In this document: positions 1 to 64,000 of the stretch, one piece after another
Layout: each line of letters opens with the position of its first letter
How positions within the stretch are numbered: position 1 is the stretch's first letter
Origin: an uncultured bacterium
GTDB lineage: Bacteria; SAR324; NAC60-12
Assembly: GCA_965662845.1 (NCBI GenBank)
Contig: CBFIJD010000004.1
Location: forward strand, 20,986 to 84,985
Direction of reading: 5' to 3'
Length of the DNA: 64,000 nucleotides
Translations under genes and position numbers: made by a program
Notes under the pieces: generated by a model
What the model was told of the DNA's origin: nothing
Databases searched by the model: none
The model's input: only the letters and a program-made list of their open reading frames with translations

Positions 1-22
1 CAACTCAACGGATGGAGACTTT

Positions 23-547
23 ATGGATCGTAAGAAAAAGCTCAAATTTGCCGCCGGTGTTGTCGGCACGCTCTCGGTCGGTACGCTGGTGTTGGCGAAT
101 GTGATGGTTCCTGAACTAAATCCACCGCAGCGCCACACAGGGCACATCGTCTCGGCAAAGGCTGACGCCGTCTTACGGCAGGCGTGCTTTGACTGTCACA
201 GCAACGAGAGCACGTGGCCGTGGTACGCCAATGTGCCCTTCGTCTCTATGCTGGTCGCGCACGACATCAAAGATGGCCGGGAGGAGTTGAACTTTTCGGA
301 GTGGGACAGCTACTCCGAAGGGCGCAAGCACCACAAACTCGCGGAGTCGATCGAAGAGATGGAAGAAGGCGAGATGCCGATGTGGGTGTATACCCTCACG
401 CATCCGGAAGCGGAGCTAAGTCCCGAGCAGATCGCTATGCTGCGTAGCGAAATCAGAGCTCGCTACGGCAACGTTGAGGAGTCTTCTCGGCGTGGACATT
501 CCGACGACCACGACGACCATGACTACGACGACCATGACTACGACTAA
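23..547 (+). CDS. Heme-binding domain protein (c-type cytochrome, Haem_bd-like) with His/Asp-rich tail
   Basis: N-terminal TM segment, CxxCH motif (CFDCHSN), WPWY..V..V motif, C-terminal GHSDDHDDHDYDDHDYD. Confidence 0.85.
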   Translation: MDRKKKLKFAAGVVGTLSVGTLVLANVMVPELNPPQRHTGHIVSAKADAVLRQACFDCHSNESTWPWYANVPFVSMLVAHDIKDGREELNFSEWDSYSEGRKHHKLAESIEEMEEGEMPMWVYTLTHPEAELSPEQIAMLRSEIRARYGNVEESSRRGHSDDHDDHDYDDHDYD

Positions 548-568
548 CCCTTCATATTAAAGAGAACA

Positions 569-1030
569 ATGCGCACTCAATCTTTCGCGTTCCTCACAGC
601 GCTAGGCTGCTTGCTTGGCGGAACCCCAACCTTCGCTCAGGAAGACCTCGCTCGCGGCCAGCAAGTCTACGAGACCGTCTGCGCCGCGTGTCACAATCCA
701 GAGCTGATTCCTCCGCAGGGACCGCCCATGTTTGGAGTGCAGCGGCGCTATCTCAAGCAGTATGGCGAGGCCAACTTCAGCGCTCGGATGATCGACTTTG
801 TGCAGCACCCTACCATGGAAAAAGTCGTCATGAAGAAGTCCGCCGCCAGTTTAGGATTGATGCCTGCGATGCCGCTCCCTGAGGCCGATCTGAGAGCCGT
901 GGCAGCGTTCATCCGCGAGAACCAGTGGGAGCCTCCTTGCACGCACTGGGAGCACGCAATCGCTCATCAAAGCGGAGGCGGTAACCACTCCCGCAACGAG
1001 CAGCGCAACTACAACCGCCTCTGTCGCTAA
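569..1030 (+). CDS. Monoheme cytochrome c
   Basis: Signal peptide, CAACH, APPM-like GPPMFGV, distal Met in GLMPAM. Confidence 0.85.
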   Translation: MRTQSFAFLTALGCLLGGTPTFAQEDLARGQQVYETVCAACHNPELIPPQGPPMFGVQRRYLKQYGEANFSARMIDFVQHPTMEKVVMKKSAASLGLMPAMPLPEADLRAVAAFIRENQWEPPCTHWEHAIAHQSGGGNHSRNEQRNYNRLCR

Positions 1031-1143
1031 GAGCAGCTCACGCCCCCCTCCCCAATGACAGAGATCCTGATGTCTCCTTTGCAAAGCCACCTCAGTGGCT
1101 TTATGCTGGCAAACAAGAGTAAATTTTCACCGAAGGAGGCCCC

Positions 1144-1539
1144 GTGATTGACTTCCCTGCTCCCGAAAGCATCAACGAAGATAACCTCGTCCCAAAGATG
1201 CGACAAATCGCCCAAGCCATGCTGGAATCACATCAACAGACAAAGGACGAGCTGTCTGCCCTGCGCGAGCGTGACCTGCTGCTCTATGAAGAGGTCAAGC
1301 AGACCAACGTAGAGCTCAAGCAAACCAACGTACGTATTGACCAAACCAACGATGAGCTCAAGCAAACCAACCAACGGCTAGATCACCTGACCGAAGAGGT
1401 CCAAGGCTTGCGCACAGAGGTTCAAGGCTTGCGCACAGAAGTTCAAGGCTTGCGCACAGAGATGACAGTCGGATTCAATCAATTGGCCACTCAACTCAGC
1501 AACATCGCGTCCATTCTCAAAAAGGAAGATGCGCGCTGA
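1144..1539 (+). CDS. Hypothetical coiled-coil protein with heptad repeats
   Basis: GTG start after GGAGG RBS; (E)LKQTN and LRTEVQG heptads. Confidence 0.65.
   Translation: MIDFPAPESINEDNLVPKMRQIAQAMLESHQQTKDELSALRERDLLLYEEVKQTNVELKQTNVRIDQTNDELKQTNQRLDHLTEEVQGLRTEVQGLRTEVQGLRTEMTVGFNQLATQLSNIASILKKEDAR
1291..1374 (+). repeat. Four imperfect 21-bp tandem repeats in coiled-coil CDS
   Basis: gaggtcaagcagaccaacgta / gagctcaagcaaaccaacgta / cgtattgaccaaaccaacgat / gagctcaagcaaaccaaccaa. Confidence 0.75.
1396..1458 (+). repeat. Three near-perfect 21-bp tandem repeats in coiled-coil CDS
   Basis: ga(g/a)gt(c/t)caaggcttgcgcaca x3. Confidence 0.9.
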
Positions 1540-1646
1540 AACAAAGCCTCTCCCCAGCAGACTCCCTGCTAACTTTCCTCGCTTTTTGTCCAAGGTTCTG
1601 TAATCATCTCGCCGCATTATTTTGACTCCTCACACTTCTCTTCAGC

Positions 1647-2036
1647 ATGTACACAGCGGAACAACCCACATTGCTAAAGCGGTTCGGCAGCCTCTGCCTT
1701 GGGCTGTTTTTGTTGGGGTGGCTCTGTTTGGTTCCTCTCCATGTACAACATGAAGCCGGCTTCCGCGCTCCAGACGGGACATTTGTTTCTGCAACGCTCG
1801 CCGCGCAGCTCGATTGCCTACCGTTTCCGCTCTCGCCGGAAGACACGTCGCCTCCCACAGAATGTCCAGTGCTGCAACTTTGGAACGCTGGGCACGCGCC
1901 TCTGTCAACGTCTCTCCCTCCGACGCTTCCTCCAGAGCTATTGCAACAACCTGCGGCTCTCTCCCTAGAGACACAAAACGCGCTCGCCGCTCACCCGCAA
2001 CACAGCCCTTCGCTCCGCGCTCCTCCTGTCATCTGA
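1647..2036 (+). CDS. DUF2946/CruR-like leader protein ending in RAPP motif
   Basis: N-terminal hydrophobic segment followed by HVQH, two Cys (LDCL, ECPV), Pro-rich linker, C-terminal SLRAPPVI; lies upstream of a transporter operon. Confidence 0.65.
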   Translation: MYTAEQPTLLKRFGSLCLGLFLLGWLCLVPLHVQHEAGFRAPDGTFVSATLAAQLDCLPFPLSPEDTSPPTECPVLQLWNAGHAPLSTSLPPTLPPELLQQPAALSLETQNALAAHPQHSPSLRAPPVI

Positions 2037-2176
2037 ATTCCTGCGCTTTATTTTTTTCGTCTGTCACGCGCTCCTTCCCGTCTAGCCAGGTGCTCTCCCT
2101 CGTCTTGTACGGAAGATTGCGCCGCGTTGCCGTTGTTGCAGGGCAGACCTCATTTTTACTCTCTTGATGAACAGGC

Positions 2177-3142
2177 TTGATGAAAACAACGTATCGCGGG
2201 GCGCTATGGGCCTTGCTGGTGTGGGGGATTGGCCTGACGAACGTGTCCGCGAAACTCCCCGAACTTCGTATCGCCGGTCCAGTCTCAATGACCTCGCATC
2301 CGCTACTCTACTTAAAAGAATCTGGCGCGTGGGATGACGTCGCTGAGAACATGACCTTTCAATTTTGGAAAACCCCTGAACAGCTGCGTGCGCTCGTTAT
2401 TCGTGGCGAGGTCGACATCGCCGCGATGCCTTCGAATGTTGCCGCTCAGCTGCACAACAAAGGGGTAAATGTGCGACTGGTGATGAGCGCGGTCTCAGGA
2501 ATGCTCTGGGTGGTCTCCTCCGAAGCAAAACACCAGCGTTTTGCCTCCATGCGTCAGACCGACTTCGCGCTACCATTTCGCGGCAATATGCCTGAAGCGC
2601 TCTTTGTGACGCTGCTGGAACGGGAAAAGCTCGTCAAAGCCGATCTGCGGCTGCGCTACACGCCAGGGCTTTTGGATGCCGCGCAGCTGGTGATTGCTCA
2701 ACAAACGACACACGCGCTGCTTGCTGAGCCAACGGCGTCCTTAGCTCTGCGCAAAAATCCTGCTCTGCATCGCAATTTCAGTCTTCATCAGCGCTGGGAG
2801 GTGGAATTTCCCCAAGCCCCGTCGATGCCCCAAGCGGTGGTCGCAGTCGTTGATCCGCGCCCCGAGCTGGCTGCAGTCCTCGCACAACTTCCGCAGCAGT
2901 ACGCTGACGTCGTCCACTTGGGGAGGACCTCTCCTGCAGCGGTGATCCCGCTGGTACGCCGAGCGCTCCCACAGCTCGAAGCGGCGGTGTTACAAGAGGC
3001 GTGGCAACACACGCGCTGGCAACCTCTTCCCGCTTCAGAAGCCCGAGCGCACTTGGAACCCTTCTATCAACGGCTGTTGGAGGTCGAGCCCCGCTTGCTT
3101 GGCGGGAAGCTCCCTGCGGACTCGTTTTATCAGCCCCAGTGA
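2177..3142 (+). CDS. ABC transporter substrate-binding protein, NitT/TauT (SsuA-like) family
   Basis: Signal peptide; LRALVIRGEVDIAAMPSNVAAQL and ALLAEPTAS motifs; followed by permease and ATPase. Confidence 0.85.
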   Translation: MMKTTYRGALWALLVWGIGLTNVSAKLPELRIAGPVSMTSHPLLYLKESGAWDDVAENMTFQFWKTPEQLRALVIRGEVDIAAMPSNVAAQLHNKGVNVRLVMSAVSGMLWVVSSEAKHQRFASMRQTDFALPFRGNMPEALFVTLLEREKLVKADLRLRYTPGLLDAAQLVIAQQTTHALLAEPTASLALRKNPALHRNFSLHQRWEVEFPQAPSMPQAVVAVVDPRPELAAVLAQLPQQYADVVHLGRTSPAAVIPLVRRALPQLEAAVLQEAWQHTRWQPLPASEARAHLEPFYQRLLEVEPRLLGGKLPADSFYQPQ

Positions 3143-3882
3143 AGTCCTTCTCAGCCCAGCTGCTGTGGGGAGGATGCGGAGCCCTTGCGCTGACCGCAGG
3201 CTGGTTCGCCGCCGCGTGGTGGTCTCCCCTGTTAGTGCCAACGCCGGATGCGACCGCCTTTCGTATGGTGGAGCTGTTTCAAACGACCTACTTTCACGAA
3301 CACTTCTGGATCACGATGTTGCGCATGCTCGGCGGCGCGACACTAGGGCTCCTCTTGGGGATCGTTCTCGGCATTCCAGCCGGCTTGAGCGGAGCCTTCC
3401 GCGCCTTTGTAGAGCCGTTACGTTGGGCGGCAAGCGGGGTTCCTCCCATTGTGTTGGTCTTGCTCATGATGTTGTGGCTGGGAATGGGCACCCCGATGGT
3501 GCTCACGCTCGCCGGTGTGTTGTTGAGCCCGGTGGTTTATGTGAACACCTTGCGCGGCATGGAACGCGTCGATCCGCAACTGCGAGAGATGGCGCGCGTG
3601 TTTCGCTTCACTCCCCGCCAATGGCTCACGCAAATCTATCTGCCCGCCTTAGCTAGTCCCCTCGCGGCCTCCGCGACGTTGGTCTTGAGCACCAGTGCTC
3701 GGGTCGTTGTGATGGCCGAAGTCCTCGGCGCAAACGAGGGCATCGGGTATGCGGTGTCCCTCGCACGCACACACTTGGAGGTCGCAGAGTTGTTTGCGTG
3801 GATCGTCGTCAATCTCTTGCTGATCGGTGCCTTAGAGAACCTGCTGCTCCGCCCTCTACAACAGAGAGTGGAGCGATGGTAG
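3139..3882 (+). CDS. ABC transporter permease, NitT/TauT family
   Basis: GTG overlaps upstream stop (GTGA); multiple TM segments; EAA-like loop LREMARVF; AEVLGANEGIG motif. Confidence 0.88.
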   Translation: MKSFSAQLLWGGCGALALTAGWFAAAWWSPLLVPTPDATAFRMVELFQTTYFHEHFWITMLRMLGGATLGLLLGIVLGIPAGLSGAFRAFVEPLRWAASGVPPIVLVLLMMLWLGMGTPMVLTLAGVLLSPVVYVNTLRGMERVDPQLREMARVFRFTPRQWLTQIYLPALASPLAASATLVLSTSARVVVMAEVLGANEGIGYAVSLARTHLEVAELFAWIVVNLLLIGALENLLLRPLQQRVERW

Positions 3883-4481
3883 CCCTCACCATTCAAGGCT
3901 TGTCACATCGCTACGCCACGCGACCCATTCTGCACAATTTTGAACTAGCGGCGAATGCAGGCTCGGTTGTGTCGATTTTAGGGCCTAGCGGCTGCGGCAA
4001 AACGACGCTGTTACGTCTCATCGCAGGGCTGGAACCCATACAGACAGGGACGATCCTACACGCGGCGCAGCGCAGGGCCTTTGTGTTCCAAGAACCAAGA
4101 TTGCTGCCGTGGAAGAGCACTCTCGACAACCTACGCATCCCGCTTGAAGCCGCAGGCTGGGCTCCTTCCCAAGCTCAGCAAGAAGCTCAAGATTGGCTCC
4201 AGCGTCTGGAATTGCACAAAAGCGCAGGTTTGTTTCCGCGCCAGCTCTCCGGCGGAATGCAACGTCGGGTCGCGTTGGGACGCGCGCTGGCGGTTCAGCC
4301 AGACTTGCTGCTGCTCGACGAACCGCTGACGGGCCTCGATGAGGCCTTACGACACCGGATGTTAGACTTGATCGCGCACACACAGAGCGCTCTGCACACC
4401 ACCATGCTGTATGTGACGCATCAACGCCGCGACATCCAACGCTGGCAGGGATCGGTCGTCGAAATGCGACCTCTTCCTTGA
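3876..4481 (+). CDS. ABC transporter ATP-binding protein, NitT/TauT family
   Basis: Walker A GPSGCGKT, VFQEPRLLPW, signature LSGGMQRR, Walker B LLLLDEP. Confidence 0.92.
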   Translation: MVALTIQGLSHRYATRPILHNFELAANAGSVVSILGPSGCGKTTLLRLIAGLEPIQTGTILHAAQRRAFVFQEPRLLPWKSTLDNLRIPLEAAGWAPSQAQQEAQDWLQRLELHKSAGLFPRQLSGGMQRRVALGRALAVQPDLLLLDEPLTGLDEALRHRMLDLIAHTQSALHTTMLYVTHQRRDIQRWQGSVVEMRPLP

Positions 4482-4551
4482 AACCGAAGAGAGCCTCGCT
4501 CTCTTCTCTCATGGTTGTCTCTCTAGGCAACTTTTCTTACTCAGGAGTCCT

Positions 4552-5100
4552 ATGAAAAAGCTGTTTTTATTGATTTTTTTGCTCGCGCTCGCCCTCAGCG
4601 GGTGTACTCAAGCCACCACAGACCAACCCGCAGCCAAGCCCCAGTCCATTGCGGTCTCCGATCCGTGGATCCGCGCGGTTCCACCGAACGCGAGTAACTC
4701 TGCAGCCTACATGCGTCTGGAGAACCCGAACGCGAGAGACCAACAGCTCGTGGGAGCGTCTACCTCAATCGCGGAGACCGTGGAGATTCACAACATTGCT
4801 GAAGAGAACGGGATGATGCGGATGTTCCCTGTTGATGAGATCAACATCCCAGCGAACGGTGCGCAGGCGCTCACGCCAGGCGGATTTCACCTCATGTTGA
4901 TCGGTCTCAAACAGCCGCTAGAGCGAGGACAAGAAGTGCAACTTGAGCTGGAGTTTGCCGACCAATCCAAGCAGATCGTCACGGCGGAGGTGGGCGATGG
5001 GAGCCCAATGCAAAGCGAGCCTCACGGTCAGCATGGAGGAGCGGCGCACCATGACGGCATGGAGCACCATGGCGCGGCGGGGATGAAGCACGAAAGGTGA
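4552..5100 (+). CDS. Copper chaperone PCu(A)C lipoprotein
   Basis: Lipobox LSGC; PWIRAVPP..SAAYM; EIH-x10-MxM and GGFHLML Cu ligand pattern; His/Met-rich tail. Confidence 0.92.
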   Translation: MKKLFLLIFLLALALSGCTQATTDQPAAKPQSIAVSDPWIRAVPPNASNSAAYMRLENPNARDQQLVGASTSIAETVEIHNIAEENGMMRMFPVDEINIPANGAQALTPGGFHLMLIGLKQPLERGQEVQLELEFADQSKQIVTAEVGDGSPMQSEPHGQHGGAAHHDGMEHHGAAGMKHER

Positions 5101-5138
5101 GGAGGGGAGGGAACTCGTGGAGGAGCCGCAGCTGTGGA

Positions 5139-6602
5139 CTAGCTGCGTTCCACATACTTCACGAGGGTTTGCTCCAGAAGCAGGATCTCTAGGTGATTGA
5201 CTAGATAGTCCAGCATGATGTGACGCCACGTTTTTTTGCGGAATGTGTCGCTGAACTCCAGCATTTGCAGGCGTTCATCTAAAGATTTCAGTTGGTACTC
5301 ACGCTGCTGGAGCGTGTTCTCCAAGCGCAGCTGTTCACGCACCCAAATAGAGAGTTCTTGCAGCTCTCGGGTCGCGTCTCGACGTTGCACTTCAGGATCT
5401 TTTGGGGTGGACACCAGCTCTGTTGCCCAGCGATAAAAACCACTCTCTCTGGGGTAAACTTCATAGAGATTGACCGTCCGCGCAGCGCTATTTTTCTCTT
5501 GTTTGACCGGCCGCAACAGCTCACGGATCTCAACGGTAGAAGCCTTCAAATGCTCAATCAACCGGCGGCGTTGTTGCAACAATTGTTGATAGTGGCGCTC
5601 ATGCTCCTCGTCGGCGTCGTGAGGGTCGGTCTGTTCCATCGCTCGCACCTCGCGCTGCGTTTGCAGCAACAACTCCTTCCACTTTTGTCTTTTTCCTAAC
5701 AAGACCTCTGCCTGCTGCCGAATCTGCGCTTGCTGGGCCACCCGCTCCTCTTCCTTGCGGCTCAGCGTCTTCGTTTTATTGATCGCAACCACGACGGACA
5801 GCTGCTCTGCGCTCGCTTTCCATGGATTGATATATATCAAATCAAAATTTTCAAATTCCGGGACTTGAAACAGAAAGTCGGAAGAGCGCGCGGCTTGCTT
5901 GTGGTCTGACTCGGGTCGGTTGCTGAGGAAGCGATTGCGGATGTGCAACAAATCTTGCAGACGCATCGTCCGGACTCGATTCGGGCTGTAGCCGTGCTTG
6001 CCGATCGCTTGCGCCATGCGGTTGCCTAGGCCATCGACGATCAAAATTCGCAAGAGCGACTTCATCACGCCCTCTAACTGCTGCATACCGCTGATTTCCA
6101 CCACTGTGCGCTCAAAGAGCTTCACGACTCCTGGCAAATAGTAGGGCAACAACGGCTCAAACTTTGGTGTGATTGACTGCAAGATGCGCTGCAAGTTTTG
6201 CTGTCGGTGCTCCAAGTGATGCAGCTTCATGCCCCAGCGGAAAAACTTGGGGAAGGGTTGCTCCTCCTCCATCTGGGACTGAGCCTTCCGCAGCTTTTCG
6301 ATGCGTTCTCTCCAGAACGCCAGCTCAGGAAAGGCCTCCAGCGTCGAAGATGTCAGGGGTTCTGCGCGCAGATGGAAGCCCATTGTGCGCGGAGTGATGT
6401 CCTCTTGCGAGACCAACCTTGACCACTCATGCCAGTCCCATGAGACATCTGACTTGGGCATATTGCGCTCCACCGCGTACATGTGCAGATGCAGCTGCCC
6501 TTGGTTCACCTGAAAACGTCGCTGAATCTCATCTTTTAGCTCTTGATGCCAAGGTTCTGGCAAGGAGAGGCGTACCGTGGGTACGTAGTCAGGTATGTTC
6601 AT
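5139..6602 (-). CDS. Hypothetical protein, receiver-like core plus long coiled coil (paralogue of 6892-8337)
   Basis: 487-aa ORF with blocks shared with the divergent neighbour (ILIVDGLG, PEFENFDLIYINPWK, LSRKEEE). Confidence 0.8.
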   Translation of the reverse strand: MNIPDYVPTVRLSLPEPWHQELKDEIQRRFQVNQGQLHLHMYAVERNMPKSDVSWDWHEWSRLVSQEDITPRTMGFHLRAEPLTSSTLEAFPELAFWRERIEKLRKAQSQMEEEQPFPKFFRWGMKLHHLEHRQQNLQRILQSITPKFEPLLPYYLPGVVKLFERTVVEISGMQQLEGVMKSLLRILIVDGLGNRMAQAIGKHGYSPNRVRTMRLQDLLHIRNRFLSNRPESDHKQAARSSDFLFQVPEFENFDLIYINPWKASAEQLSVVVAINKTKTLSRKEEERVAQQAQIRQQAEVLLGKRQKWKELLLQTQREVRAMEQTDPHDADEEHERHYQQLLQQRRRLIEHLKASTVEIRELLRPVKQEKNSAARTVNLYEVYPRESGFYRWATELVSTPKDPEVQRRDATRELQELSIWVREQLRLENTLQQREYQLKSLDERLQMLEFSDTFRKKTWRHIMLDYLVNHLEILLLEQTLVKYVERS

Positions 6603-6891
6603 GCGTTGCGCTCAAGCGTCCCTTGGTTGTGGTCCAGACGGATGTTCGTGAAGTTCAGAGGTTGACTGCCCAGAATCTTGCAAACTTTCAACATTATGTC
6701 ACACTCCAGCGATTTCCGCTCTGCGTTCGCCTCCTCGCTGGCTTCCTGATCTCTTTCAGCGGGGTGGCTTCCATGTGCTCTTTCAATGCGTGGTTGAACA
6801 TCTGGTCATTCAAGAACACGCCGTCAGGAGTTCCCACAACCGATGGGGAGGGGAACTGAACCACTTCTTCTACGCTTCTCTTCAGCAAAGC

Positions 6892-8337
6892 ATGCCCGAT
6901 TCACTGCTGGTCTCACTGCCGCAAATCTGGTTCGACAACTTACAACAAGAGTTACAACGGCGCCTGCAACGCCAACGACTCCCCGCTCAGATCCAAGCGC
7001 ACCGCCCCGGCAAGCCGCTGTCGCCCCGCGCTCAGGTGTTTTGGCTTTGGTATGACGATGACTTTCAAGGACAAACCAAGCCTTCAGGGTTGAAAATTCA
7101 GCACAAGTCCGCGTTCACGCCGCCCACACAAATCAGCCAGCTTCCGGCACAACAACAAGTGTGGTTGCGACGCCTCAAGCGCTTGCACAAGCAACTTTTG
7201 GAACGCAAACCCGACAGCGACTTTCTCAAGTTCTGCGGCAGCAGCGTGGGATATTTCCGCAAAGCCGAGAAACACTGGCAGCAAAATCAAGTCCTGCAAT
7301 CGTTAGCCCCTAAAGTAGAGCCCTTTGAGGGACTCTATTTTGACGCGTTGGGGCAAGCTTTGGATGAAGCCATTCTCCGCGCCACCGGTATCACGACGAT
7401 GGAAGAGGTCGTGCGCACTCTGGTCAAGGTGCTGGTCATTGACGGCATGGGAGGGCTGGTGCCAGAAAATCTTCAGGCGCGCGGCTACCGCAGCCCCCGC
7501 ATTTCAACAATGAGCCTCTTCCAGCTGCGGCAGCTCTGGCAAAAACAACAACCTGAGATTGCAGAGATTGACGTGCACGCGCTCTCGCCAGCCGTCTTCC
7601 AACAGCCTGAGTTTGAGAAGTTTGATCTCATCTTGGTCAACCCTTGGAAATTCAAAGACGATGGCCTACCCGTCGCGGTCTTCGCGAGAACCTCCGGCAA
7701 CCTGAGCCGCAAGGAAGAGCAACAGGCCTCCCAACACTTTGAAAATCAGCGCAAACTCGAAGAGCTGAAAGGGCGACGTCAGCGCCATGAAACCCAACTC
7801 AACGCCGTCGTGCAGCAACTTCAATTGATTGAGAATACAGGCCGCACGCAAAGTCGGGGAGACGAACAACACTACCGACAGTTGCTTGGGGATCGCAAAA
7901 AGCTCACCTTGCAGCTCCGTCGCGACACGCTGCGCATCAAAGAGCTGAGCAAACAGGTCGACACCCGCCCGCGAGAGAATTTGGATGTGGTCAATTTGTT
8001 AGAGGCTTTCCAAACCACGGGATCTTTTGCCAACCGCGCCGCGACGCTGCTGAAAAGCTCGTTCACGTCGCCCAAAGATGACCCGCACAGCCCCCAAGCC
8101 CAGCTCAAGCGCATGTCGGTGTTTATGCGCCAACGCGAGCGGATTGAAGCGACGATGCATCAGCTTCATGGAGAAATGCAAACCTACGAGGACAAGCTCC
8201 AACAGTGGACCGATCACCGCTTTCGGGGTGCCGATCAGCGACCTTGGCGCCGCCCTTTTTTGGAGAACCTCTTAGACCTGTTGGAAGTCGCCGCCTTGCG
8301 AGAAATGTTGGCGCAGACGCTCCCTCCCGATGCGTAA
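6892..8337 (+). CDS. Hypothetical protein, receiver-like core plus long coiled coil (paralogue of 5139-6602)
   Basis: ATG at 6892 (MPDSLLVSLPQIW) aligns with the paralogue N-terminus (MNIPDYVPTVRLSLPEPW); VLVIDGMG, PEFEKFDLILVNPWK, LSRKEEQ. Confidence 0.8.
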   Translation: MPDSLLVSLPQIWFDNLQQELQRRLQRQRLPAQIQAHRPGKPLSPRAQVFWLWYDDDFQGQTKPSGLKIQHKSAFTPPTQISQLPAQQQVWLRRLKRLHKQLLERKPDSDFLKFCGSSVGYFRKAEKHWQQNQVLQSLAPKVEPFEGLYFDALGQALDEAILRATGITTMEEVVRTLVKVLVIDGMGGLVPENLQARGYRSPRISTMSLFQLRQLWQKQQPEIAEIDVHALSPAVFQQPEFEKFDLILVNPWKFKDDGLPVAVFARTSGNLSRKEEQQASQHFENQRKLEELKGRRQRHETQLNAVVQQLQLIENTGRTQSRGDEQHYRQLLGDRKKLTLQLRRDTLRIKELSKQVDTRPRENLDVVNLLEAFQTTGSFANRAATLLKSSFTSPKDDPHSPQAQLKRMSVFMRQRERIEATMHQLHGEMQTYEDKLQQWTDHRFRGADQRPWRRPFLENLLDLLEVAALREMLAQTLPPDA

Positions 8338-30199: not shown

Positions 30200-31753
30200 T
30201 TAAGCCGCCGATTCGGCAGCGGTTTCAGACTGCAGCAACAGCAAGTTGAGCATTTTGAGCGTCGCGTTGACGGCGGCCATGACTTGGTCTCCATCGACGC
30301 CGATCGTTTGCATATTGCGCTCGCCCATTTTCCATGTGATCACCGCTTCGGTCAATGCGTCTGTTTGTCCGCTGCGGGGAATGCGCACTTCGTAGTCGAC
30401 TAGCTCTGGGCACTGCACTTGGCGGCGCTTGAGCACTTTTTTCAAGGCGTTCATGAAGGCGTCGTAGCCGCCGTTGCCGGAGCCCGTCTCGGTGTATTCT
30501 TTGCCTTCCCACTCCACGGCAATGGACGCGGTGGATTTGAGATGCAAGCCGCTGCTGACGCTGCAACCGACCAAGCGCAGGCTCTGCTGCACGTTGTTCT
30601 CCAGCACGTCGGTGACGATGAACGGCAAATCAGCCGGAGTAATGGTCTTCTTGGAGTCGCCAAGCGCGACAATGCGGTCGAGGACTTTGCGCAGGTTCTC
30701 GTCAGAGAGCTGTAAGCCGAGCTGTTCGAGGTTCTTCACGAGGGAGGCCTTCCCACTCATTTTGCCAAGGGCGTAGCTGCGCGTTCGACCGAAGCGTTCG
30801 GGCTTGATGGGGTTGTGGTAGAGCCCGCCTTTCTTGTCGCCGTCGGCGTGGATGCCGCTAGTTTGGGTGAAGACGTCGGTCCCGACGATCGGCGCGTTGG
30901 CGGCGAGGCGTTTGCCCGAGAAGGACTCAATCATCTCGCTGATGGGGACTAGGCTGCTCTCGTCGATGTTCAGCGTCGCTCCTGTTTTGTCGCGCAAGAC
31001 AACGGCGATCTCTGCGAGGGAGGCGTTCCCAGCGCGTTCGCCGAGGCAGTTCATGGTGCAGTGCAGGTGGCGAATCCCGGCTTTCACCGCGTAGAGGCAG
31101 TTGGCGGTGCCCAGTCCGTAGTCATTGTGTGGGTGGAAGTCGAGCGTGGCCCACGAGAATCGCGTCAGCATGTCGGTCATGCTGTCAAAAACGTCGGCAG
31201 GCGAGAGCACCCCCAGCGTATCTGGCAGCATGATGTGCTCAATGCCCAGCGGCTCAAGCCCAGCCATCATCTCATAGACGTAGTCCGGGCTATCGCGGTA
31301 GCCGTTGGACCAGTCTTCCAAGTAAGCGTTGACGCGCAAGCCGCTTGCTTTGGCGTATGCGACGGTCTGTTCGACGTCGGCCAGATGTTCTGGGAGCGTT
31401 TTACCGAGCTGGTTCCAGCAATGATTTTTGCTACCTTTGGTCAACAAATTCAGGACTTTGCCTCCCGCTCTCACAATCCAGTCCACGCTGCGTTTGTGGT
31501 CACAAAACCCGAGCACTTCGACTTGCTCTAGAAATCCGTGCTCGAACGCCCAATCCGTCACATTGCGCACCGCTTCTTGTTCCCCTGCTGAGATCCGCGC
31601 AGAAGCGATCTCGATGCGGTCGACTCGTACGCGCTGCAGGAGCGCCTTCGCGATGTTCACTTTTTCAGACGGAGTAAAGGAGACGCCTTGGGTTTGTTCG
31701 CCGTCACGCAGCGTGGTGTCCATCAGGCAGATGTGTGCGCCAGCTAAGTTCAT
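30200..31753 (-). CDS. cimA: (R)-citramalate synthase (LeuA family, Leptospira-type)
   Basis: DTTLRDGEQTQGVSF, VDRIEIASAR, VLNLLTKGS, LEDWSNG, FHPHNDYGL, GERAGNA, C-terminal regulatory domain. Confidence 0.85.
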   Translation of the reverse strand: MNLAGAHICLMDTTLRDGEQTQGVSFTPSEKVNIAKALLQRVRVDRIEIASARISAGEQEAVRNVTDWAFEHGFLEQVEVLGFCDHKRSVDWIVRAGGKVLNLLTKGSKNHCWNQLGKTLPEHLADVEQTVAYAKASGLRVNAYLEDWSNGYRDSPDYVYEMMAGLEPLGIEHIMLPDTLGVLSPADVFDSMTDMLTRFSWATLDFHPHNDYGLGTANCLYAVKAGIRHLHCTMNCLGERAGNASLAEIAVVLRDKTGATLNIDESSLVPISEMIESFSGKRLAANAPIVGTDVFTQTSGIHADGDKKGGLYHNPIKPERFGRTRSYALGKMSGKASLVKNLEQLGLQLSDENLRKVLDRIVALGDSKKTITPADLPFIVTDVLENNVQQSLRLVGCSVSSGLHLKSTASIAVEWEGKEYTETGSGNGGYDAFMNALKKVLKRRQVQCPELVDYEVRIPRSGQTDALTEAVITWKMGERNMQTIGVDGDQVMAAVNATLKMLNLLLLQSETAAESAA

Positions 31754-32841: not shown

Positions 32842-33816
32842 ATGCAGATCGGGTTTGCTTTTCATGATGACCAACCTCCCTCAAAATTCTATCCGTCAAC
32901 GCACGGAGTGCCGCTCCGTTTTGCCGATTTGCCCACCTCTCAGCATCGCCGCATACGCTCCCGCCCACAAATTGAGTCCATCGCGGAAAAACATTTGCAA
33001 CTGAACCAGAGAAAACGTACTTTCCTGCCGATCTTTGTCTTTTACTCCCTAAGAAGCTGCGAGGAATCTTATGCACGAATTCAATATCTTAGTCACCTTC
33101 GGAGCCGTCTCCGCCGTATATCTCATCATTTTTTTTGCCGCCGAGTTCATGTTCATGAAGGAGCCCGAAGAAAAGTAATTGTCTTCTCGGCAGGTGTGCT
33201 TCTCAGCGCCTGCCAAACCGCCGCCCCCCCGACTTCGCCTACAGATTCCATGCCTCCCACCGCCTACGTCTACACTGGCAGGTTGCTCCTTCAATCCAGC
33301 CAAGTCTCCCAGACAGGAGACACCGAGCTGTATTTGCAAGAGGGTGGCTTGCGGCTTGTCATTCTTGCGCCCTTGCTCGGAACTCGGCTCTTGGAAATCC
33401 GCGCCAATGAACAGCAAGTGCTCATCCTCGACTATCAAAAACAACGCTTTGAACAAAAACCCAACACCGCAGAATTGCGCGAAGAGTGGCTCGGGGTCGA
33501 TTTGTCGCCGCAAGAGCTTCGACTTTTGTTGACAACCCCCAACGCCTTGCTCCAGGAGTCCGAGCGCTGGCAGCTTCCCCAAAGCGCGACCACGGAGATG
33601 GTGCTCCAACGGCAAGACGCCACAGGGGCGGTTCGTTTGACGATACAGGTTCGTAGTTGGCAGGAAGACGCAAACGGGAGGTATCCCTACAGATTGGAGG
33701 TGCAGGATGAGCAGAGCGGGAACCGTCTCGTTCTGGTGGTTCGAGAGCGCGCTCCTCTGCCGACGATCCGGCTGGACTTCACACCGCCAGAGGCGTTTCC
33801 TCCGGCTTCGTCATGA
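32842..33816 (+). CDS. LolB-like/DUF4292-like outer-membrane lipoprotein; start uncertain
   Basis: RRK-hydrophobic-LSAC lipoprotein signal at about 33165-33213, then beta-rich LRLVILAPLLG..LEI..N....LILDY domain; the upstream part of the ORF is probably not translated. Confidence 0.6.
   Translation: MQIGFAFHDDQPPSKFYPSTHGVPLRFADLPTSQHRRIRSRPQIESIAEKHLQLNQRKRTFLPIFVFYSLRSCEESYARIQYLSHLRSRLRRISHHFFCRRVHVHEGARRKVIVFSAGVLLSACQTAAPPTSPTDSMPPTAYVYTGRLLLQSSQVSQTGDTELYLQEGGLRLVILAPLLGTRLLEIRANEQQVLILDYQKQRFEQKPNTAELREEWLGVDLSPQELRLLLTTPNALLQESERWQLPQSATTEMVLQRQDATGAVRLTIQVRSWQEDANGRYPYRLEVQDEQSGNRLVLVVRERAPLPTIRLDFTPPEAFPPASS
33071..33178 (+). CDS. Small single-TM protein (35 aa)
   Basis: GAGGA RBS then MHEFNILVTFGAVSAVYLIIFFAAEFMFMKEPEEK*; below the ORF-track cutoff. 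Confidence 0.55.
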   Translation: MHEFNILVTFGAVSAVYLIIFFAAEFMFMKEPEEK

Positions 33817-43070: not shown

Positions 43071-44621
43071 ATGGATCTTGACCCAAACCGTTGGCAACAA
43101 TGCAAGGCACAGTTGCGGGAACAGCACTTCCCTCAACCGTGTCCGCCATGGCTGGAGCCGCTTCAGCTGACAAAGATCTCTTCAACCAAAGTTATCTTTG
43201 TCGGCGTCCCCCACCAGATTTATGTCTGTGATATTCGAAACCACCACGAAGAGCTCTTGCGCTCCCTCTTGGAAGAACACTTCCCTGAGTTTGGCAGCTT
43301 CCGCATGCAGCAGTTCGAATATCAAGTTGGCCAAGGAGCTAATCCTGTCCGACCTGTGCAAGAAGAGTTCGGCTTCTTGTCGCCCGAGCCCGTGGAGGCC
43401 GCACCGGCTCTCGAGACGCTCCCAAAGCCACCCGCTGGCGCTCAGCCCTCCACCAAGCGACATACGCCGTCTAAAACGAGCAGCAAGACCTTGGACACCG
43501 TCGTAGTGGGCAACCACAACCAACTGGCTTTTCGGGCCGCAGAGATGATTGTGAGGGCCCCCGGAGAAGCGTATTCTCCTTTTCTGCTCTATGGAGCGGA
43601 AGGATCCGGCAAAACCTACCTGCTTGAGGCGATTGCTGAGGAGCTGCGTCTCTCCTACCCAGACCTCAACATCGTCTTTCTCTCTGCCGAAGCCTTCCTG
43701 AATGAATTCGTGCGCCACATCCGCACCAAGCAAATGCAGAAATTTCGCGAGCAATATCGACAAGTCGACGTCTTCATCATTGACGATGTGCAAGCGCTCT
43801 CTAGCTCTCCACAATGCCAAACCGAGCTGAAGCACACGCTCAGCACGCTCCGTCAAGAAAACAAACAAATCTTGCTCTCTTGCAACCGCTTGCCAAGCCA
43901 GATTCCAAGTCTCAACAAAACACTGACCTCCAAAATGGAGTCTGGGCTTTCCCTAGATATTCCAAGTCCAGACGAAGAAACCTGCAAACGACTCTTGGAG
44001 CGCAAAGCACGGCAAACAGGGATTCTGCTCTCTCAGAGCGTGTCCGCATATCTCGCGCGTCACCTGCCGCCCAACATCACCCAACTAGAAGCCGCCTTAA
44101 CTCGCCTAGGAGCCCACTCTTCTCTGATGGGAGAGGCGATCTCGCTGGAGTTGGTGCAACGTTTGTTAGGACAACGCGCCGCTGTCACAAAGCAGCAACC
44201 AGCGCTGCCAGAGGTGGGCTTCTGTGAGGATCAAGGGGAATTGGAGGATCAAATCATTGAGAAGGTCTGCCACGTCTTGCGGGTCTCTCAAGAAGAACTG
44301 CGCTCCGGTCGCCGAGACAGCCGCGTGGTCAAAGCGAGGCAATTTGTCACCTTCCTCCTCAAAGACCTCTGCGGTCTCTCTCTCTCTCAGATTGGATCTA
44401 AGCTGGGGCGGAGCCACTCCACCATCCACCACGCGCTACGCAGCGCTGAGAAAAACCAGCGCCAAGACGAACTCTTTGCTCGCCAACTCTCCTCCCTACA
44501 GCGCGAATTTCAGGCACAACTAGACCTCCCTCCGATCCGCACCCAAGCGCCACCACTCCCGTCCTCCTCTCAAGCAGACGCCGCATGGCAGCTTTCTATG
44601 CCACTAGGTGGTCAATCATAG
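43071..44621 (+). CDS. DnaA-family paralogue with degenerate catalytic residues
   Basis: All four DnaA domains: WLEPL, NQLAFRAA, YSPFLLYG..G.GKT, IIDDVQ, ARQ...L..L..IG..LGRSHST; no dnaN downstream. Confidence 0.88.
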   Translation: MDLDPNRWQQCKAQLREQHFPQPCPPWLEPLQLTKISSTKVIFVGVPHQIYVCDIRNHHEELLRSLLEEHFPEFGSFRMQQFEYQVGQGANPVRPVQEEFGFLSPEPVEAAPALETLPKPPAGAQPSTKRHTPSKTSSKTLDTVVVGNHNQLAFRAAEMIVRAPGEAYSPFLLYGAEGSGKTYLLEAIAEELRLSYPDLNIVFLSAEAFLNEFVRHIRTKQMQKFREQYRQVDVFIIDDVQALSSSPQCQTELKHTLSTLRQENKQILLSCNRLPSQIPSLNKTLTSKMESGLSLDIPSPDEETCKRLLERKARQTGILLSQSVSAYLARHLPPNITQLEAALTRLGAHSSLMGEAISLELVQRLLGQRAAVTKQQPALPEVGFCEDQGELEDQIIEKVCHVLRVSQEELRSGRRDSRVVKARQFVTFLLKDLCGLSLSQIGSKLGRSHSTIHHALRSAEKNQRQDELFARQLSSLQREFQAQLDLPPIRTQAPPLPSSSQADAAWQLSMPLGGQS

Positions 44622-63786: not shown

Positions 63787-63846
63787 CTTTGCCGCGTTTC
63801 TGCTGCACGTTGATGCGCTTCTTTATCTCCTCCATGCAAGCCACAC

Positions 63847-64000
63847 ATGAACGCTGCCGAACGCCTGCGACAACTCATCTCTGAACTACGCGCGGCCTCA
63901 CCTCACCCTGCCCCCTCTTCTGCACCGCACACCTCCGGATCTCCTTTCGCACAATGCTTACAGCGGCTTGATTTTGAAGCCGAGCAGCCTCGGCCGCGCG
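63847..64000 (+). CDS. Partial ORF running off the window end
   Basis: MNAAERLRQLISELRAASP..., no stop before 64000. Confidence 0.4.
   Translation, partial: MNAAERLRQLISELRAASPHPAPSSAPHTSGSPFAQCLQRLDFEAEQPRPR

Follow-up and report, generated by a model that had tools for sequence, protein, structure and literature searches.

SAR324 bacteria carry a family of short leader genes whose products are predicted to be membrane-anchored, end in or near the motif RAPP and are encoded in front of copper-related genes. Here we describe this family starting from one member in the window, by which we mean a 64,000-nucleotide (nt) stretch of contig CBFIJD010000004.1 from an uncultured SAR324 bacterium (assembly GCA_965662845.1). 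The window leader is an open reading frame (ORF) of 129 amino acids with an ATG start, located at positions 1647-2036 on the forward (+) strand, and it is followed by genes for the substrate-binding protein (SBP), permease and ATPase of an ATP-binding cassette (ABC) importer and for a PCu(A)C copper chaperone (PCuAC). An earlier, sequence-only reading of this DNA had pointed to a 129-amino acid ORF with an N-terminal hydrophobic segment, His and Cys residues and a RAPP terminus, all of which are present, and had proposed a copper-sensing attenuator of the kind represented by CruR (Bp2923) of Bordetella pertussis, the prototype of DUF2946 (PF11162; Roy et al., mBio 2022, PMC9426467). The idea of a leader-like attenuator has held up insofar as the gene is conserved, stands first, keeps RAPP in 27 of 29 sequences and precedes copper-related cargo, whereas the leader is not detectably a DUF2946 protein. 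Judged from sequence, the SAR324 leaders are best regarded as a new sequence family within the known class of copper-linked RAPP arrest leaders. New here are the ligand motif, the length of the ruler that separates Cys from RAPP, the SAR324 host and, in the window lineage only, the ABC cargo. No new principle is established, since upstream ORFs ending in RAPP in front of PCuAC genes are an already published class, and to that extent the concept is less new than was first assumed.

A conserved leader gene in SAR324

In the window translation, the leader ends in SPSLRAPPVI followed directly by the stop codon. The RAPP codons (CGC GCT CCT CCT, 2016-2027, +) form the predicted stall site, at which, by analogy with toeprinting of CruR, the codon for Pro126 would occupy the P site of the ribosome and the codon for Pro127 the A site. 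At the other end of the protein, residues 13-31 (FGSLCLGLFLLGWLCLVPL) make up the most hydrophobic 19-residue segment of the leader, with a mean Kyte-Doolittle value of 2.14. The segment is preceded by K11 and R12, and there is no obvious cleavage site. AlphaFold2 predicts a confident helix across residues 7-32, with mean predicted local distance difference test (pLDDT) values of 91 for residues 11-20 and 86 for residues 21-30, and together with the hydrophobicity this points to an N-terminal signal anchor (1665-1742, +). Beyond the transmembrane helix confidence is low and the chain is predicted to be disordered, with pLDDT below 50 at residues 83-96 and 100-121. The leader contains Cys at positions 17, 27, 57 and 73 and His at positions 32, 35, 83, 116 and 119. 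Among these, the HVQH sequence at the outer end of the helix (residues 32-35, 1740-1751, +) provides candidate metal ligands and is invariant in all 29 family sequences described below, as are the cysteines C57, within LDCLPFPL, and C73, within ECP (1815-1865, +).

Several properties of the window sequence, taken by themselves, would fit a chance ORF in a stop-poor, pyrimidine-rich noncoding region rather than a gene. The codon-usage score of the leader is 0.02, compared with 0.32 ± 0.12 for 390-nt pieces of real window genes, which places it at the 3rd percentile of real genes and within the off-frame range, a value that does not decide between frames. Five overlapping ORFs of at least 84 amino acids share the region. 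When the window is translated in all six frames, RAPP turns up 11 times, twice within five residues of a stop codon; near a stop, approximately one or two chance occurrences are expected per window. The second near-stop occurrence, RAPPAYLAA followed by a stop at 31204 (+ frame), lies antisense within a LeuA-like gene (30200-31753); because it is antisense inside a conserved gene we take it to be a chance occurrence, and it shows the background rate of the motif. No match to the leader came from Pfam, from NCBIfam or from word-seeded searching of 5.8 billion proteins. Finally, a contig at JGI that is 99% identical to the window (referred to here as the twin, L001) is annotated in another frame, with a 75-amino acid ORF at 808-1035 that corresponds to window positions 1741-1968 (+).

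Nevertheless, an exhaustive phmmer search against 1.84 billion representative proteins detected three homologues of the leader, with E values of 4.8e-18, 5.8e-9 and 3.5e-5. Because the homologues are full length, reaching E 4.8e-18, and RAPP is kept through synonymous codon changes, we accept the leader ORF as a real gene; its status as a genuine conserved gene is confirmed by sequence comparison. A chance ORF is thereby already refuted by the homologues, the conserved motifs and the synonymous changes in the RAPP codons, and we give it practically no credence. It follows that the public gene call on the twin uses the wrong frame, leaving the real leader unannotated there and absent from the collection of 5.8 billion proteins. 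The twin shows no substitutions inside the leader ORF and is therefore uninformative regarding the reading frame. The first ~135 nt of the twin (compared with window 934-1068) are unmatched, and the remaining ~10 kb differ from the window at just 26 positions; the unmatched start could be an artefact of the contig end, or the population of the twin could have another junction upstream.

A profile seeded with an alignment of the first homologues recovered 28 cluster representatives, standing for hundreds of sequences, and the resulting alignment (A3) contains 29 sequences including the window leader. All members come from SAR324-type marine bacteria and none of the 28 representatives carries a Pfam annotation. 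Residues W25, H32-V-Q-H35, C57, F60, P61, P64 and C73 are invariant in all 29 sequences, and L26 is nearly so. The two invariant cysteines are 14-20 residues apart and, at the place of a CXXC motif, the family reads CP(A/V/I)(L/F), bearing out the earlier observation that the CXXC is not intact. R124-A-P-P127 is at least 90% conserved, with RAPP in 27 of 29 sequences and RGPP in one, and it is followed by two residues in 26 sequences and by four and seven residues in two others. The RGPP variant, P0012 (L085 101-745), is annotated as a protein of 214 amino acids; its start is probably over-extended, because the alignment begins only at an internal MRVSF. In another marine member, P0037 (144 amino acids, on a 170-kb ENA contig), the tail diverges approximately 20 residues before the end and has no RAPP, which looks like a frameshift caused by sequencing error or by decay of the leader.

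The family effectively consists of four lineages, and leaders of the three other lineages are 31-47% identical to that of the window. The segment between the second cysteine and RAPP is the least conserved in sequence yet constant in length, with 50, 50, 50 and 49 residues from the second Cys to the RAPP Arg in the four lineages (C73 to R124, 50 residues, in the window). The RAPP codons in turn vary synonymously among lineages, with CGC, CGG or AGA for Arg, GCT or GCA for Ala, and CCT, CCA or CCC for Pro. Given that the codons differ synonymously while the Cys-Arg gap stays fixed, selection acts on the peptide and on the length of this gap.

Copper-related cargo and the ABC importer

The leader is always the first gene and, wherever the downstream gene could be identified, it is followed by copper-related cargo after a gap of 143-234 nt (up to 246 nt in the marine group). 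In a marine group with leaders of 127 amino acids, 210-246 nt separate the leader from PCuAC, and the genes beyond PCuAC are unrelated; this arrangement is seen at L084, at L090-L094 and at all 14 complete metagenome loci. The PCuAC assignment was confirmed with Pfam for L084, and the other marine loci carry near-identical sequences. In the lineage of P0013, which comprises a SAR324 metagenome-assembled genome (MAG) and three other contigs, the leader is followed after 186 nt by MbnP and MbnH. In the P0012 lineage a gap of 234 nt leads to a gene (MKKWKLVVEHWMEQWGHIVYRRRWVVLG..., L085 980-1147) that runs off the end of the contig. The window and its twin make up the remaining arrangement, leader, 143 nt, ABC importer and PCuAC. 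The conserved partner of the leader is thus PCuAC, and the ABC arrangement is seen in the window and twin only. Two metatranscriptomes contain individual contigs that run from the marine leader through the spacer into PCuAC, consistent with one transcript.

For the window, we propose that the leader heads a five-gene operon composed of leader, SBP, permease, ATPase and PCuAC, all on the forward strand. The 143-nt intergenic region between the leader stop and the SBP (2037-2179, +) contains a run of seven T residues at approximately 2050-2056. The periplasmic SBP (2180-3142, +) is of the SsuA/TauA/NMT1 type of the NitT/TauT family according to weak Pfam matches and Foldseek. It is followed by the permease (3139-3882, +; GTG start; BPD_transp_1, 3.7e-19) and the ATPase (3876-4481, +; ATG start; ABC_tran, 4.4e-29), both of which are also called on the twin. 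The SBP and permease genes overlap at GTGA and the permease and ATPase genes at ATGGTAG, and PCuAC has its own AGGAG. PCuAC itself (4552-5100, +) is a copper-chaperone lipoprotein by its match to PF04314 (E 4.8e-38, 129.8 bits against a cut-off of 29.4) and by a lipobox match. It has an intact H-x10-M-x21-H-x-M motif (ending HLM) and a His/Met-rich tail, and these motif residues are kept when it is aligned with the marine PCuAC. The gene after PCuAC is convergent. The composition of the ABC genes is not foreign to the window.

The window PCuAC is 39% identical to that of the marine group. Window HisD, by comparison, is 84-89% identical to that of SAR324 genomes, including MAGs that carry the marine locus, which identifies the window itself as SAR324 DNA; the corresponding values are ~50% for the leader and 39% for PCuAC. 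The neighborhoods also differ, with umuDC-like genes at the marine locus and cytochromes at the window locus. Because the leader and PCuAC are far more diverged than HisD, and because the neighborhoods differ, the window and marine loci are better seen as paralogous modules. The simplest reading of the gene order is that, in this lineage alone, an ABC cassette lies within a leader-PCuAC unit. This position implies that the importer and the copper chaperone are regulated together, and does not point to a substrate.

The predicted SBP structure (AlphaFold2 pLDDT 85.9) has as its best Foldseek matches 3hn0, whose ligand is unknown, SsuA, PqqT with pyrroloquinoline quinone (PQQ), and TauA, with query-normalised TM-scores of 0.63-0.74. 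The SBP of the 99% twin is named a NitT/TauT SBP by JGI, and the set that defines this family is present in the window within a single operon: a Class II SBP, a permease with BPD_transp_1 and an ATPase with ABC_tran. The best NCBIfam matches of the permease are SsuC, TauC and SaoP, and the ATPase is SsuB/TauB-like; hence in fold and in best-matching families the importer resembles the SsuABC/TauABC type and, in its SBP, PqqT. However, all of these scores are far below cut-off (SsuC, for example, reaches 56 bits where 347 are required), NCBIfam gives no match at all for the SBP, and identity at the equivalog level with SsuABC, TauABC or the nitrate transporter was not found. Unlike SsuABC and TauABC, the window SBP belongs to a small subfamily found near TonB-dependent transporters.

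A genome scan with the single SBP sequence returned nothing, and an alignment-seeded scan was needed to find relatives. It identified 344 loci, of which 80 were examined, with SBPs that are ~36-41% identical and mostly from Betaproteobacteria. In 68 of the 80 loci, an ORF of 613-939 amino acids ending in GR-x9-F lies directly upstream, and in these 68 the position after GR is occupied by S (36 ORFs), G (24), N (7) or T (1); L007 is the one exception among the 69 ORFs selected for size and position. Three of the upstream ORFs (L058, L059 and L008) were assigned by hidden Markov models (HMMs) to TonB-dependent transporters of a haem-receptor-like subfamily, below cut-off, and NnrS follows the ATPase in both SBP loci tested with Pfam. 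A recurring module can be recognized at these loci, consisting of TonB-dependent transporter, SBP, permease and ATPase, for example at L058 3310-9143 and L059 7920-13659; the module of L058 is preceded by ExbB-like and DUF2149 genes and followed by a DUF2325 gene. The sequence-only reading had raised the question whether RAPP leaders accompany this SBP subfamily. They did so at none of the 80 loci examined, including by six-frame search, which gave scattered chance matches only, and the small ORFs upstream of the TonB-dependent transporters in these loci bear no resemblance to DUF2946.

Import of copper or a copper chelate, also suggested earlier, is not indicated by the SBP, given its fold, which resembles that of the organic-anion binders SsuA, TauA and PqqT, and its conserved residues. 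Across 77 aligned SBPs, M83, M137, H178 and the five arginines R70, R134, R159, R191 and R198 are conserved and there is no conserved Cys, a set better suited to an organic anion, a cofactor or a chelated metal than to a free copper ion. An apparent parallel on an Azospirillum ramasamyi plasmid (NZ_CP029832.1; L114 1729-5435) has SBP, permease and ATPase genes immediately upstream of a genuine DUF2946 gene and PCuAC. We rejected it as a counterpart of the window because the two SBPs are unrelated (E 4.1). That set adjoins a PQQ-dependent alcohol dehydrogenase and PedF.

The order of downstream genes and the presence of two c-type haem proteins upstream agree with what had been described from the sequence. 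The latter are a Haem_bd protein (23-547, +) and a cytochrome c (569-1030, +), which we treat as context; a coiled-coil gene (1144-1539, +) and a 107-nt gap separate them from the leader. The coiled-coil protein contains a threefold TEVQGLR tandem repeat, encoded by a DNA repeat at approximately 1390-1460, and has weak matches to coiled-coil families only. Further downstream, 5139-6602 (-) and 6775-8337 (+) encode, in divergent orientation, proteins of approximately 490-520 amino acids that share common stretches (FE.FDLI..NPWK...LSRKEE) and have no Pfam match; from their sequences they appear to be paralogues. Exact look-ups of the window PCuAC and of P0002 found nothing on record.

Proposed mechanism and alternatives

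We consider it probable, though by a modest degree of confidence, that the leader is a CruR-like regulatory peptide of a distinct family so far confined to SAR324. The arrest, the identity of the ligand as copper, the direction of the response and a role for Rho are all drawn from CruR by analogy. In this model, the nascent chain would insert with its N-terminal helix as a signal anchor, N-terminus in and C-terminus out, and the ribosome would arrest on R124-A-P-P127, two codons short of the stop. At arrest, C73 would be approximately 53 residues from the peptidyl-transferase center, roughly enough to reach through the exit tunnel and past the translocon, such that a ligand set of H32/H35, C57 and C73 would be just complete outside. 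When copper is absent, the arrested ribosome would cover the C-rich, unstructured 3' end of the leader and block loading of Rho, and the copper-acquisition genes would be transcribed. When copper is present, metal binding would compact or pull on the nascent chain and free the arrest, the ribosome would terminate, and the exposed Rho-loading (rut)-like region would allow Rho to end transcription within the 143-nt spacer. Since the cargo serves acquisition, we expect expression to be switched on when copper is limiting. Rho is favored over unmasking of a ribosome-binding site (RBS) because the window spacer is unstructured, the start codon is at least 143 nt from the stall, and no helix shows covariation. 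A variant in which copper is sensed in the periplasm, as in CutF of Rhodobacter capsulatus, is possible given that the candidate ligands lie outside the membrane anchor.

The candidate rut site is a C-rich, G-poor stretch at 1900-2100 (+) that takes in the leader's 3' end and extends ~60 nt into the intergenic region. GC skew across it is -0.40 to -0.43, and its C minus G value is in the top 0.3-0.7% of all 100-nt window segments on both strands, making it a genuine outlier. The pyrimidine-rich spacer reported earlier at approximately 2037-2110 is also there, with 74% pyrimidine (64% over the whole of 2037-2179). In every lineage, the C/G ratio of the last 150 nt of the leader is 1.5-3.1. A stronger excess of C over G (0.29-0.34) is found elsewhere in the window, at 44461-44590, 63821-63960 and 33201-33310 (+). 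Folding of the C-rich region and spacer of the window is no more stable than that of shuffled sequences (z = +1.24). Rfam gave no family over positions 1-5300, a promoter scan found none, and terminator-like sites occur at chance level with none inside the 143-nt spacer.

A number of points weigh against this model. In addition to the low codon-usage score, the C over G bias might result from coding for a protein rich in Pro, Leu and Ser, the spacer yielded no RNA element with support from covariation, and the marine RNA contigs are unstranded with DNA carry-over possible. Unlike CruR, the family lacks CXXC and has instead HVQH and two Cys that are 14-20 residues apart. Its ruler is also 50 residues and not 45, where the CruR value would be 48 if C73 is equated with the first Cys of CXXC, and an insertion of five residues in the CruR spacing largely abolished the copper response (PMC9426467). 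Finally, CruR and CutF differ in where copper is sensed: cytoplasmic sensing that does not depend on the signal peptide has been proposed for CruR, and the copper sensed by CutF is periplasmic.

CutF suggests a different mechanism, in which copper bound to the exported nascent chain induces stalling instead of relieving it and the stalled ribosome remodels the spacer RNA to open the downstream RBS, giving translational control that is switched on by copper and does not involve Rho. The position of the ligand residues outside the membrane anchor is as in CutF, and the ~245-nt marine spacer is highly conserved, about equal to coding sequence (16 sequences, alignment A7; L084, L090-L109). Hairpins are predicted in it, one at columns 132-136/149-153 with a compensatory CG-to-UA change in 3 of the 16 sequences, and one just upstream of the PCuAC start. 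In six marine sequences the RAPP codons could also pair with a downstream GGAGGA, a candidate helix that we rejected, as 16 sequences leave six invariant pairs with zero covariation. Against a copper-induced switch, PCuAC, MbnPH and the importer are acquisition cargo expected to be repressed by copper, the window spacer folds no better than chance, and the start codon is 143-246 nt from the stall site, far past the footprint of the ribosome. We therefore regard this mechanism as rather unlikely.

We think it unlikely that the leader is a functional membrane-anchored periplasmic copper protein that acts together with PCuAC or MbnP, for instance as a donor of Cu(I), with RAPP serving as an insertion pause or a degradation tag. 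Invariant His and Cys residues, a well-conserved N-terminal half, strict synteny with periplasmic copper proteins and RNA contigs that show transcription would all be expected of such a protein. However, the exported part is predicted to be disordered, the Cys-RAPP segment varies in sequence at fixed length, suggesting a ruler and not a fold, and the long spacers of 143-234 nt are conserved. A monitor of the SecM kind, in which arrest reports Sec/YidC translocation and not metal, would match the combination of signal anchor and C-terminal RAPP seen in Sec/YidC-associated arrest peptides, but it seems highly improbable because no protein-localization genes are found downstream in the members examined, where the identified cargo is copper-related or an ABC importer, and because it would leave the invariant HxxH and two Cys without a role.

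Returning to the CruR-like peptide, a bolder version is that the family is an independently evolved or unrecognizably diverged metal-sensing arrest peptide, with a membrane-proximal HxxH and two separated Cys as ligands and a 50-residue ruler spanning tunnel and translocon, that in the window lineage captured an SsuA-type ABC importer, which would then be induced by copper starvation for uptake of a copper chelate or another scarce cofactor. We offer this as speculation that is doubtful as it stands. If true, it would connect to copper a class of transporter not previously tied to it and, with SAR324 being abundant in the dark ocean, could represent a widespread marine response to copper scarcity.

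Comparison with CruR, CutF and other RAPP arrest peptides

CruR has an export signal, a CXXC motif and RAPP 2-3 residues from its end, with a CXXC-RAPP spacing of 45 ± 2, and it stands first in copper operons, some of which contain PCuAC and MbnPH, ahead of a 162-nt spacer; mapping placed its rut site within cruR, in a C>G bubble (PMC9426467). Like CruR, the window leader is small, anchored and the first gene, with RAPP near the stop and a fixed distance from Cys to RAPP. It also shares the long spacer (143 compared with 162 nt), the C over G excess in the 3' part of the ORF, a mature part that is predicted to be disordered, and PCuAC/MbnPH as cargo. It differs from CruR in its signal anchor, its SAR324 host and the ABC importer as cargo, which is not mentioned for CruR (PMC9426467).

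The similarity to DUF2946 that had been anticipated was not borne out by HMM search. The Pfam DUF2946 model gave no match to the window leader at E≤1 or at E≤10, and a single member of the 29, P0013, matched it below threshold (14.4 bits against a gathering cut-off of 23.7, E 0.066, profile positions 50-117, in the C-terminal half of the model). For a direct comparison, four genuine DUF2946 reference proteins, three from Azospirillum and one from Blastomonas, were recovered from plasmids; tblastn from one Azospirillum DUF2946 reached Azospirillum only, and several plasmid PCuAC loci had no DUF2946 neighbor. With this thin reference, hhalign of the family alignment gave a probability of 0.35% and E 0.17, over the last 17 columns only. 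The annotated Blastomonas DUF2946 also lacks the second Cys of CXXC, indicating that CXXC is not universal in DUF2946. By eye, the Azospirillum sequence HCPLCPL...LPPP...GWFLSTLQARGPPSHV, which ends at the stop, resembles the C-terminal half of the SAR324 family, CPxL...LPP...AWLSLASLRAPPxF followed by the stop, and a genuine Azospirillum DUF2946 protein has a Trp 7-8 residues before the RAPP Arg, as in the SAR324 leaders. From these similarities in sequence, a very remote common ancestry with DUF2946 is possible.

CutF is the DUF2946-type leader of cutFOG in R. capsulatus (Ozturk et al. 2023; 2025 preprint, 10.1101/2025.02.05.636593). Its chain is exported co-translationally, its Cys and His ligands sense periplasmic copper, and a C-terminal proline-rich stall motif acts in an EF-P-dependent manner to turn on a detoxifying multicopper oxidase through melting of an RBS stem-loop (10.1101/2025.02.05.636593). 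The SAR324 leader would be like CutF in having candidate Cys and His ligands beyond the membrane anchor and a proline-rich motif at its C-terminus. Unlike CutF, it precedes genes that serve to acquire copper, and our analysis gave no support for an RNA structure that masks the RBS.

More broadly, intrinsic arrest is strongest with the two motifs RAPP and RGPP (EMBO J 2025, PMC12992588), which characterize arrest peptides such as ApdA, ApdP, ApcA and SecM-related proteins (Morici 2024, PMC10951233; PMC12992588). CruR arrests in vitro with the third and fourth RAPP codons in the P and A sites, and small secretory or transmembrane proteins ending in RAPP or RGPP are enriched upstream of genes for PCu(A)C, YcnI, TonB-dependent transporters and PepSY proteins (PMC12992588). 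The window leader has the features of this class, being shorter than 300 amino acids, secretory or transmembrane, with a C-terminal RAPP and a downstream gene on the same strand, and the one RGPP variant of the SAR324 family carries the other strong arrest motif of the class. Those surveys define a motif class and not the SAR324 sequence family, and the survey makes no mention of SAR324, MbnP or ABC transporters in its main text (PMC12992588). Finding the family gives a regulatory context for an uncharacterized SsuA-type ABC importer and corrects the public gene call on the twin. Until now, work on copper-responsive stalling leaders has concerned two DUF2946 proteins from Proteobacteria, CruR and CutF. 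The SAR324 family presents the same architecture in an abundant uncultured marine lineage, undetected by the DUF2946 model and with another ligand set. The comparison therefore bears on which features of such leaders are essential, since the fixed ruler and RAPP are kept and CXXC is not, and on whether copper is sensed inside or outside the cytoplasm.

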